Source: Eledone cirrhosa (Eukaryota). From it: a stretch of 64,000 bases of DNA. The stretch is taken from positions 20,708,001 to 20,772,000 of the forward strand of contig OZ024751.1 in the NCBI GenBank assembly GCA_964016885.1, written 5' to 3'. Shown here piece after piece: positions 12,618 to 53,753 of this stretch; the first letter of the stretch is position 1, and each line of letters begins with the position of its first letter. Under the pieces are notes generated by a model, which was not told the origin of the DNA, searched no databases, and saw only the letters and a list, made by a program, of their open reading frames with translations. The position numbers were made by a program, and so were the translations under genes.

Positions 12618-12734
12618 ATAAGTTGAAATAAAATGAAAACGAAATTTCATTTCTCACTCTTAGTACGGCACTTACTTAAATGTAAGTATGTGTGTATACG
12701 TACATACATATATGTATACAGACGTACAGTAGCA

Positions 12735-12800
<66 letters not shown>

Positions 12801-13231
12801 CAGGTACACATACATATATGCACGTATCAGTTTAGCGGACGCTTATTATAACGCCGCTTTGTTCGTTTGTAAACAAACTGAACAGCCTGAATTTTTATGC
12901 CGTACGGTGTTAAGGCAACCACGTCACCTTTTTGTTCAACACTGACACAGGAACGATGTACTAGTTTCAAGCTTGTTAGCTATCATCAGCACCGTATACC
13001 CATCTGCCAGATAGTTGAACGTTCGAAAGTATATACTTTCCTTATGAAAATTAACGGCTGAGCAGCCTAATTTGCATATCGAGTGAGCTAAGTCGGTCAG
13101 GCAAACCGAAAACGATAAGTTGAAATAAAATGAAAACGAAATTTCATTTCTCACTCTTAGTACGGCACTTACTTAAATGTAAGTATGTGTGTATACGTAC
13201 ATACATATATGTATACAGACGTACAGTAGCA

Positions 13232-13277
<46 letters not shown>

Positions 13278-13374
13278 TACACATACATATATGCACGTAT
13301 CAGTTTAGCGGACGCTTATTATAACGCCGCTTTGTTCGTTTGTAAACAAACTGAACAGCCTGAATTTTTATGCC
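12618..13374 (-). mobile_element. Family F retrozyme-like non-coding repeat (~1.5 tandem units, ~497-bp period)
   Basis: Direct repeats 12618-12901 and 13115-13374 with an HHR between them; homologous to 40718-41317 and 53477-53683. Confidence 0.8.
12954..12994 (-). ncRNA. Minimal type I hammerhead ribozyme
   Basis: Minus strand: cggtg-CTGATGA-tagctaacaagctt-GAAA-ctag-TA-catcg. Confidence 0.9.
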
Positions 13375-13392
13375 ACACTTATATATATATAT

Positions 13393-13727
<335 letters not shown>

Positions 13728-15867: not shown

Positions 15868-15910
15868 GTCAAAGTTCTTTCGTCACACATTCTGTGACCT
15901 CTTCAGTGAC
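15868..15910 (-). ncRNA. Minimal type I hammerhead ribozyme in the PLE 3' UTR/pLTR
   Basis: Minus strand: gtca-CTGAAGA-ggtcacagaatgtgtgac-GAAA-gaac-TT-tgac. Confidence 0.8.
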
Positions 15911-16104
15911 TGGGATTCTTTTCTTTGTTTTGTGCTACTCCTTTGTTCTGTCCTACGACATCTTGTTTTTGTGTGTGTTGTGTGCTCAGTTTGCGCATGT
16001 GTTACATCCGGGTGTCTGTATGTGTTTTTATTTGTTTATGTATTTGTTTATTTACATGTTACTGGTTAGTTGTTTGTTCTATGTGTGTATGTTTCATGTT
16101 GTCC

Positions 16105-17630
16105 TTAATTATAAGTTGTGATGTTGCCATTCCATTCATGTCTTCTACTTAATTTTGGTTGCAGTTCATTTATGTTTATTGCCTCTGTGATTTGTCTAAA
16201 CATTGCGTCTTTTCTCTGTATAGAATCTATTTTTATTTCTGTTCTCTAATTTGCCCTTATGTTCTATTTTTATTTCTGTTCTCTAATTTGCCCTTATGTT
16301 CTATTTTAGCATGTTGGAGGAGTACTGATGAGTCTTTTCTATCTTGAAGTTCTCACCAGTGTTCATTTAATCGTTCTCCTATACTACGAGCTGTCTCACC
16401 TATGTACATTATATTCTTATTTTTACATTGTCCCTCAGTAGATATTATGCTATATACTATGTTTCTAGTTTTACAGTTAATATGGGGGCTTAGCTTACAG
16501 ATTATGCATTTCCTATCTATACAGGGAGGTCTTTGTAAAGAGTATGTATTACTAATAAGTGTTTTTATGGAGGTACCTGGTCTTTCCACTATCTTAATAT
16601 TTAGTTTAAGTTTATCTAGGGCCCTTCTAAATTTGTAAGCTAGTTCACCTCTAGGGGTTGTATTGATGAACATTACACTCTGGTATTTATTGCTATCATA
16701 CCATGAGTTTATTTTATTAACCTTATTCCTAGTTCTTTCTATTCTATTCCAAAATTTGCTCCCATACAAGGGGCAGGTCCCATTTGTATCATTATTTACA
16801 CCAGGGCGGTGGATTGGCAGTATCGGTAGAGGGTCGGACGCCATGCTTTCCAGCATAGTTACGTCCCTTTGCGGTCTGAGTTCAAATCCCGCCGAGGTTA
16901 ACTTTGCCTTTCATCCTTACGGGGTCGATAAAATAAAGTACCAGTAACGTACTGGGTAATTGATGGCCTTGTGCCAAAAGTAGAAACAATTATTTACAAT
17001 TTTTTCCCCATTTGGTTCTGGCTCCTCTATACACTCTGATTTTATCTCTCTGATTGTAACCAGAGAACTGCATACGTTGGATGAAGTGTTGTATGTATCT
17101 CTCTAGTTCTTTGGGGTTGCACATGCGGGACACGTTCCTCATCACCCTTACTAATTCCGCAATCAGTATGTTGATTTTGGTGTGATCCGAAACACCTGAG
17201 TTTCGGTGGATCAGGTATTTGGAAGTCATGGGTTTGGCATAATTGGAATGGAGGATTTGTTTTTTGTTATTAATGGTTTCTAACCTGAGCTCTGTGTCTA
17301 CTACAGGTAATCGATAGTTGCGGTGTTTGCTTGGGTAGTCTATAGTAACTTTGATACTCTGGTGGATGGAGTTAGCTATTTTCTGGATGCTTTCCATGGT
17401 GTTTTTCTCTAATTCCTGACTGTTCTCTAGTGGGGGTGTCTTAACTACGATGTTTATATCATCAACGTAGCGGGAGTACATTATCAGGGTTAAGAGATTG
17501 TCGTCTTCTAATTGTTCGTTAAGTTTTTTGTCCTACCATACCATAAATAGGTTAGCAATGTCACCTGCAATGCTAAGACCAATGGCTGCTCCCTCCTCTT
17601 GGGTAAATGTTTTTCCATTAAATTTGAACT
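16105..17630 (-). pseudogene. PLE reverse transcriptase C-terminal half + Cys-rich linker + GIY-YIG endonuclease; stops and a SINE insertion
   Basis: FKFNGKTFTQEEGAAIGLSIAGDIANLFM...RYVDD...FSGY; PCIDRKCIIC...NCKTRNIVY...YIGETARSIGERLNEH...RQITEA. Confidence 0.92.
16804..16992 (+). mobile_element. Full-length SINE inserted in the PLE ORF (TSD attatttaca)
   Basis: A/B boxes; attatttaca at 16791 and 16989. Confidence 0.92.
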
Positions 17631-40717: not shown

Positions 40718-41317
40718 ATAAATGTTCGGTGAATACATACATACATATATATATGTGTGCATGTATGTATATATATATATACATACTATTGTACGTCTGT
40801 ATACATATATGTATGTACGTGTACATACTTATATTTAAGTAACAGCCGTTACTAAGAGTGGGAAATGAAATTTCGTTTCATTTTTTCCGTTTATCGTTTT
40901 CGGTGCACCCGGCCGATTACCCACTCGATATGCAAATTAGGCTGCTCAGCCGTTAATATGCATAAGGAAAGTATATACTTTCAGACGTTCAATCATCTGG
41001 CAGGAAGGTATACGTTGCTGACGATAACTAATAAGCTTGAAACTAGTACAGCGTTCCTTGTCAGTGTTGATCAAACGAGCAACGATGGTTGTTAGACACT
41101 TCGGCTTAATACGGGATGTTTGTTTACAAACACACTGAGCATTATAATAAATGTTCGTGAATACATACGTACATATATATATGTGTGCATGTATGTATAT
41201 ATATATATACATACTACTGTACGTCTGTATACATATGTGTATGTACGTATACATACTTATATTTAAGTAACAGCCGTACTAAGAGTGTGAAAATTTCGTT
41301 TCATTTTTTCCGTTTAT
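40718..41317 (+). mobile_element. Family F retrozyme-like repeat (~1.4 units, ~429-bp period)
   Basis: Direct repeats start at 40718 and 41147; the element ends cattttttccgtttat|(AT)n. Confidence 0.8.
41013..41053 (+). ncRNA. Minimal type I hammerhead ribozyme
   Basis: cgttg-CTGACGA-taactaataagctt-GAAA-ctag-TA-cagcg. Confidence 0.85.
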
Positions 41318-53390: not shown

Positions 53391-53476
<86 letters not shown>

Positions 53477-53480
<4 letters not shown>

Positions 53481-53681
53481 GGAAAAAATGAAACGAAATT
53501 TAATTTCCCACTCTTAGTACGGCTGTTACTTAAATATAAGTATTTTTTATTTTTGTACACGTACATACATATATATTTACAGACGTACAGTAGTATGTAC
53601 ATATATATACATACATGCACACATATATGTACGTATGGATTCACCGAACATTTATTATAATGCTCGATGTGTTTGTACATA

Positions 53682-53683
<2 letters not shown>
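53477..53683 (-). mobile_element. Family F 3' fragment (no HHR)
   Basis: Reverse homologue of 41120-41317 with the same terminus at (TA)n. Confidence 0.78.

Positions 53684-53753
<70 letters not shown>

Follow-up and report, generated by a model that had tools for sequence, protein, structure and literature searches.

The retrozyme class is known, and its link to Penelope-like elements (PLEs) has already been proposed and has been argued from sequence kinship. For the non-LTR retrozymes of metazoans, RNA circles and hammerhead cleavage have been shown, and copying of the circle by a PLE reverse transcriptase (RT) was proposed (Cervera and de la Pena 2020, PMC7229834). Vertebrate non-LTR retrozymes have in turn been argued to be PLE derivatives on the basis of sequence kinship (Li, Clavereau and Pollet 2026, 10.64898/2026.07.22.740005). 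In the portions of these papers compared here, the return of animal retrozymes to DNA by a PLE RT acting on the circle is proposed and not shown. PLEs themselves are recognised by insertions whose truncated arm is inverted and whose tail is present at a single end (Craig et al. 2021, PMC8557442), and reverse transcription by an anole PLE is initiated at two internal positions delimiting the tail, both strands of the target being extended (Frangieh et al. 2024, PMC11167929). Non-autonomous multicopy PLE elements also exist, such as Chlamys MRC1 (PMC8557442, PMC11167929).

The window analysed here, a stretch of 64,000 nucleotides from Eledone cirrhosa (contig OZ024751.1, positions 20,708,001 to 20,772,000), contains three copies of a repeat that we call family F. 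On balance, the evidence favours reading F as a non-coding, multi-copy repeat with a predicted hammerhead and mostly two-armed, fixed-end insertions, likely copied by a Penelope-like RT round a unit-length RNA circle. Its features in the window are the following, S1 and S2 being the putative RT start sites:

12618..13374, minus strand: copy A, subfamily A, 757 bp, one arm of ~1.5 units (locus L001)
12942..13010, minus strand: type I hammerhead motif of copy A, core CUGAUGA at 12989-12983, with extended stem I, stem II with U.U at its base and helix III palindrome CUAG
12959, minus strand: predicted cut of the copy A hammerhead, after GUA
13029..13079, minus strand: U6/MRP-like motif of copy A, a putative promoter, with an octamer-containing 15-mer at 13079-13065 and a TATA-like box at 13036-13029
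12619..12683, minus strand: "tail" of copy A, between S1 (~12683) and S2 (~12619-12621)
13385..13626, no strand assigned: neighbour outside family F, a fold-back of the two 3' ends of the Hydra-clade element PLE-b
40718..41317, plus strand: copy B, subfamily B, one arm of ~1.4 units with a period of 429 bp (locus L031)
40997..41064, plus strand: type I hammerhead motif of copy B, core at 41018-41024, predicted cut after 41048
40928..40978, plus strand: U6/MRP-like motif of copy B, a putative promoter, with the 15-mer at 40928-40942 and the TATA-like box at 40971-40978
41259..41317, plus strand: tail of copy B, S1 to S2
53476..53677, minus strand: long arm of copy C, subfamily B, ~200 bp, ending at S2, without a hammerhead
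53674..53685, plus strand: inverted arm of copy C, 12 bp, ending at S1 in (TA)n, read by eye

The preliminary description had recognised A and B as two diverged loci with stem I variants that keep pairing, and had placed the end of all three copies at one position next to (TA)n. These points are confirmed: ~1.5 units lie at 12618-13374 (minus strand) and ~1.4 units of 429 bp at 40718-41317 (plus strand), the stem I strands read CGGTG/CATCG in A and CGTTG/CAGCG in B, and A, B and the copy at 53477 share the same monomer end against (TA)n. The path of copy A crosses the hammerhead junction once and its arm ends at S2 in (TA)n, as does that of copy B. The ~260 nt at the start of copy A are repeated with 91.5% identity in an alignment of 284 columns, the two stretches differing in (TA)n length; the period comes to 497 bp when taken past the (TA)n tract, but to 473 bp when taken ahead of it. 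Copies A and B are 76% identical, microsatellite included, and copy A adjoins the (TA)n end of the PLE-b fold-back. Copy C is two-armed, its arms overlapping by ~4 nt, and fits the S1/S2 pattern described below through its 12-bp S1 arm. That each unit carries one hammerhead, as first claimed, stands for the single motif in A and the single motif in B, but the partial second unit has none and neither does copy C. Because A and B carry one hammerhead each and C none, no unit-length RNA can be released from A-C by double cleavage; the three window copies are insertion products, not sources of unit-length RNA. The first reading had missed the main architecture of the family, namely two tail-out arms with two fixed ends, as well as the promoter-like motif.

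Genome-wide, the 31-nt hammerhead core pattern has 24,243 exact matches in 3.0 Gb and 0 in the reversed control, so the family cannot be due to chance; the A type accounts for 10,032 of these matches and a third type for 1,719. The best-scoring A matches are 99% identical between contigs, from which part of the family must be young, and the top matches are spread over many contigs. At 24,000 copies or more, of which many are young, F is a sizeable contributor to genome change in E. cirrhosa. Grouping the first 100 core matches gives 58 clusters, of which 37 contain one hammerhead and 14 at least two in tandem. Monomers measure 420-580 bp, with a GC content of 36-39%, and no conserved ORF was found in family F units. 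The assignment to non-coding tandem hammerhead repeats of the retrozyme type thus agrees with both the lack of an ORF and the 14 of 58 tandem clusters, and the search for multimeric arrays suggested in the preliminary description returned arrays of 16 and of at least 19 units, so it does not hold that the monomer never occurs as multimers. At the level of sequence, F has every feature by which metazoan non-LTR retrozymes are recognised, hammerhead cleavage and circles being predicted.

The hammerhead of family F combines the core CUGAYGA and GAAA with the cut site GUA, an extended stem I, a stem II in which four pairs rest on a U.U mismatch, and a helix III of one pair plus the palindrome CUAG; stem II of copy B has one A-C mismatch. 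The core is intact in 209 of 225 units. Across 10 distinct variants, 99.3% of cells pair and double changes occur at 8 of 15 pairs, none of 500 shuffles scoring as high, with most of the double changes contributed by one related 310-bp family. The ribozyme of that family aligns to that of F without gaps and has compensated stems and a different palindrome, while one stem I position shows three pairings within family F itself. This covariation supports the predicted hammerhead fold. A local Rfam search gave a weak HH9 match (18.6 bits, cut-off 52), the 150 matches listed for Rfam on the whole window were microsatellite noise, and short hammerhead folds alone were no better than shuffles. Circular-fold z-scores of -7 to -9 (25 shuffles) are inflated by the (TA)n hairpin; the monomer fold is kept across subfamilies, with double changes at 9 of 117 pairs. 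Since axolotl motifs with a comparably weak helix III cleave well only as dimers (PMC7229834), the same mode is predicted for F, and its hammerheads would probably cleave as dimers.

Hammerhead-like motifs number 22 in the window and belong to several families. The 20 further sites, from 9314 to 53926, represent at least six other type I hammerhead families, with many tail-out fold-back pairs ending in (TA)n, and are probably the 3' ends of other PLEs or of their non-autonomous riders. At 15906-17532 (minus strand), broken PLE fragments (RT thumb region, GIY-YIG, weak Pfam match) are followed by a hammerhead at 15906, with a sequence unrelated to F. Elsewhere in the genome, family G (L016:2335-3314, L197) is a 310-bp tandem hammerhead repeat without the U6-like motif, whose ribozyme is gapless to that of F, and in L188 an F arm borders on a short stretch resembling G. 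A fold-back element at L178:1400-1620 and L128:6770-6960 has a hammerhead-like core and a stem II resembling that of family G, and may point to the origin of the F and G ribozymes. One contig from a second organism carries a diverged F copy with a strand switch.

The arms of F insertions end at two fixed sites, S1 and S2, which lie ~63 nt apart and run into (TA)n via short TA microhomology; they are ~252 and ~316 nt past the cut site in subfamily A, and 212 and 274 nt past it in subfamily B. One of these two sites is the end of 159 of the 187 arms of at least 100 bp. Among 110 loci, 79 tail-out pairs were found, 22 with an unclassifiable end and 57 classifiable; the latter comprise 55 S1/S2, 2 S2/S2 and 0 S1/S1 pairs (binomial p 2e-14). 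A separate set of 60 loci chosen only by their S2 end has an inverted partner in 40 cases, ending at S1 in 32, at S2 in 1 and elsewhere in 7, and all 12 of the 12 mixed-strand clusters among the 58 are tail-out. Arm lengths spread smoothly, from ~50 to 2,900 nt. The inverted truncated arm and the tail at one end only match Penelope-type insertion marks, and together with the 55 of 57 S1/S2 pairs, they support the link to PLE machinery suggested at the outset. We infer that both ends of the DNA break prime on the RNA, one at each site. The (TA)n target is common to F and the resident PLEs, and target-site duplications are unreadable in it. As a separate matter, the idea that S2 is a Pol III terminator end was rejected, as arm ends run beyond the T run.

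The form of the template is constrained by the 5' breakpoints, which fall within -3..+5 of the cut site in 3 of 188 cases (~4 expected); likewise, in the S2-anchored set, the predicted cleavage junction was passed 45 times, with 2 stops where 1.6 were expected. Copying of cut linear monomers would pile 5' ends at the cut site, and none are piled there, so the template is continuous at the cut junction and must be either circular or an uncut multimer. Template jumping, end to end, between linear monomers released by self-cleavage would also yield uniform arrays and might be read into the slight surplus of 5' ends seen at +5..+12 (8 arms), yet there is no pile-up at +1, the sequence across the junctions is undisturbed and copying stops there at the background rate, which makes this origin of the multimers very improbable.

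More-than-unit length is not in itself proof of a circle, since the same outcome is reached from a read-through transcript that stays uncut. The preliminary argument that such insertions fit reverse transcription around a circle thus keeps its conclusion, favoured by array homogeneity, but loses its premise, as length alone fits an uncut transcript equally well. Unit identity is 99.4/98.9% within arrays versus 96.4/95.1% between arrays, and 16 of 29 multi-unit arrays show less than 1% internal difference. The arrays of L261 (16 units) and L262 (7 units, two private variants present in all) are uniform across both arms, and a single haplotype extends over both opposed arms, with intact outer S1/S2 ends, in L166, L167, L261, L262 and L266. 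Repeated copying of one monomer would produce uniform arrays, and arrays that do not shrink away over generations; judged by this homogeneity, a circular RNA is somewhat the favoured template. The other 13 of 29 arrays are less uniform, and L263 (19 units) differs by 8%. L192 and L269 alternate units in an a-b-a-b order that a dimer circle or a duplication would fit, and subfamilies are mixed within L040, L195 and L265. A-to-G editing was examined as a possible mark of a circle: counts of A>G versus T>C are 20 versus 8 for arm-fixed alleles and 43 versus 52 for single-unit alleles; taken as distinct events, they are 8 versus 2 and 22 versus 11 (Fisher p 0.70), which does not separate the models.

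The same Penelope two-site insertion could also proceed on an uncut linear read-through of a tandem array, with the hammerhead slow or a passenger and the circle unneeded. Such a template explains the junction read-through, would let alternating and mixed arrays be inherited from heterogeneous sources and, if transcribed from a uniform array, predicts most of the same patterns. Experiments on related elements point the same way: for the anole PLE in vitro, insertion was not impaired by hammerhead mutants and uncut RNA was the main substrate (PMC11167929), and 1 of 9 Xenopus retrozyme dimers was cleaved in vitro (Li et al. 2026, 10.64898/2026.07.22.740005). However, a linear template combined with internal starts and 5' truncation would let arrays only shrink at each generation, whereas many dispersed uniform arrays carry their own haplotypes, with up to 16 units over two arms; a passenger hammerhead is, moreover, hard to square with the high proportion of intact cores and with covarying stems. 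We regard this linear route as unlikely, while granting it an appreciable chance.

The circular template also has to be weighed against satellite behaviour, in which insertions of about one unit would later have grown in DNA by unequal crossing-over or slippage. L263, with at least 19 units in a single orientation, its 8% internal difference and related unit types scattered, looks like an old satellite; the a-b-a-b arrays fit dimer duplication, and local expansion was proposed by Li et al. 2026 (10.64898/2026.07.22.740005). As a general account, this is improbable: it leaves unexplained both the single haplotype on two opposed arms with intact S1/S2 ends and the smooth spread of arm lengths.

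Candidate enzymes are at hand in the same genome, in which PLEs are very abundant and retain intact frames of 713 and 828 aa. These PLEs show RW, DKT and CxCX5C motifs and (TA)n targets, as described for the Hydra clade, an assignment made by motif and not by tree. Pfam gave no match on full PLE ORFs and one fragment a weak GIY-YIG match; the Atlas neighbours of the PLE proteins are unnamed, with HTH_animal or GIY-YIG on a minority of members. The two ends of PLE-b itself lie 87 nt apart. F shares no sequence with PLE-a, PLE-b or PLE-e, the three PLEs compared. In 2 of ~190 loci, F directly abuts a PLE endonuclease ORF, the joint being in line at L011 and tail-out at L189; template switching during a single insertion would be expected to leave such joints. 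Since these chimeras involve two different PLEs, the partner of F is a clade-level guess. From these sequences, the helper RT of F is likely Penelope-like, probably of the Hydra clade.

Further arrangements of F with PLE sequence were observed. In L150, L166, L034 and L137, 5'-truncated Hydra-type PLE ORFs start from a few to ~230 bp beyond the (TA)n ends of F and point outwards, a layout that may reflect nesting in shared targets or joint events. At L189:4100-7160, the tail-out junction of F with PLE-e occurs twice, inverted, which suggests that the chimeric RNA itself re-transposed, and the inversion junction of L011 is likewise repeated. In L066 (L043/L049), a 290-bp piece, PLE ORF-like by eye, is joined to scrambled F segments twice, ~7 kb apart.

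The preliminary description had named, as grounds for rejecting its reading, that the monomer is only the pseudo-LTR (pLTR) of a coding PLE. F is not the pLTR of any coding PLE found, which leaves a PLE outside those found, with F copies as its truncated 3' ends. In favour of such an element, Xenopus retrozymes resemble PLE pLTRs (Li et al. 2026, 10.64898/2026.07.22.740005), and the ~190 loci read are drawn from many thousands. Yet no fixed ORF ever lies upstream of a unit, the place being taken by a further unit, by flank or by an inverted arm; an F unit in register after an RT-EN frame occurs in 0 of ~190 loci, the two chimeras being sporadic. PLE-a has a different, long-stem hammerhead of its own, and F sequence is absent from 60 PLE-a/b loci, save for two adjacent insertions, and from 23 PLE-e loci. 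There is, in our view, hardly any chance that F is such a pLTR.

Each F unit may also carry the means of its own transcription. A 15-mer located 119 nt before the cut site and followed by a TATA-like box matches the motif found at -76 to -78 in the genome's own U6, U6atac and RNase MRP genes. The match scores 20.7 bits, with 0 of 300 shuffles as high, and the only two matches in the window are copies A and B; the motif was spotted by eye and then scored with a matrix from 5 promoters selected for carrying it. Its carriers are 3 of 6 U6 loci, 1 of 8 U6atac loci and the single MRP locus (1/1), and it was found in none of the U1 (0/6), U2 (0/3) and RNase P (0/1) loci. Local alignment of the snRNA promoters against F did not pick it up. 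The spacing to the TATA-like box is 41 nt in F versus 46-47 nt in the host genes, and of 54 monomers, 43 contain the octamer, which some young arrays have in mutated form. Pol III would be expected to terminate at the T4-T6 runs that precede S2 within the unit, before a full unit is transcribed, and initiation ~30 nt beyond the TATA-like box would place the transcript start within the 5' strand of stem I. As judged from sequence similarity, the U6-like motif is a lead to a promoter of F's own. The RNase P RNA gene (L285:1341-1500) has an upstream TCAGT motif of the U1/U2 type, not the U6/MRP type, which hints at Pol II.

Altogether, these observations suggest a cycle in which tandem loci would be transcribed, perhaps from the U6-like motif of the unit, and hammerheads would cut the RNA at unit intervals, probably as dimers given the helix III of one pair and a palindrome and the newt and axolotl precedent. 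Next, the extended stem I would hold the two ends of the monomer together for ligation into a circle. A PLE endonuclease would cut (TA)n, and both DNA ends would prime RT inside the RNA at S1 and S2 through TA microhomology; for this step, the fixed ends and the one-site-per-arm rule are observed and the enzyme is a candidate. Each RT would pass the junction from 0 to at least 6 times, as the arms display, and the two cDNAs would join at variable 5' ends, as in the tail-out junctions observed, copies A-C being short products of this last step. More tentatively, we can envisage F as a self-promoting, viroid-sized RNA circle with a borrowed U6-type promoter and no sequence in common with its helper, recognised purely through its structure by a dimeric Hydra-clade Penelope enzyme whose two RT subunits each begin at a dedicated site and, from opposite ends of one double-strand break, roll round a shared circle; this fuller picture is possible, if rather doubtful. 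If true, a genome would here give a direct record of rolling-circle target-primed reverse transcription, and the reason why PLEs carry a tail at a single end would lie in the strict one-site-per-arm rule.

What this analysis adds to existing knowledge is a pair of fixed start sites, read-through of the junction, the chimeras and the promoter-like motif. A literature search covering few subscription journals and no Repbase returned nothing on cephalopod retrozymes or two-armed retrozyme insertions, and no retrozyme with paired start sites, junction read-through, chimeras or a promoter motif. With the precise RT start sites, the target, the intact candidate enzymes and the non-coding template of 420-500 nt that family F provides, the published in vitro PLE assay could serve to reconstitute the step back to DNA. 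The use of a different start site by each arm also bears on how PLEs make inverted, tailed insertions.

Compared with the described systems, F resembles the metazoan non-LTR retrozymes (PMC7229834) in consisting of low-GC, non-coding repeats in tandem, each a few hundred bp long and carrying a single type I hammerhead, and in having thousands of copies; it resembles the axolotl HHR_Amex1/Amex2 motifs of the same study in its weak helix III and the U.U at the base of helix II. Unlike those retrozymes, for which circles and cleavage were shown (PMC7229834), F is predicted to form circles and to cleave; its two-armed insertions, fixed RT start sites, candidate PLE clade and putative promoter have no described counterpart in the part of PMC7229834 consulted. 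It shares with vertebrate retrozymes (10.64898/2026.07.22.740005) the co-occurrence with PLEs and the presence of monomer, dimer and multimer loci. The vertebrate families resemble PLE pLTRs, whereas F resembles none of the three PLEs compared, and in contrast to the local expansion proposed for them (10.64898/2026.07.22.740005), the arrays of F seem to have been formed during insertion. Newt satellite 2 (Coats et al. 1994, as cited in PMC2220036) is likewise a hammerhead tandem repeat with an internal snRNA-type promoter; that promoter drives Pol II, whereas the motif of F, a putative promoter, matches U6/U6atac/MRP and not U1/U2. Like PLEs (PMC8557442, PMC11167929), F has (TA)n targets, an inverted 5'-truncated arm and putative two-site internal RT initiation downstream of the hammerhead. 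Unlike them, it encodes nothing, its tail measures ~63 nt versus 30-40 nt, and both of its arms may be multimers of a single unit.
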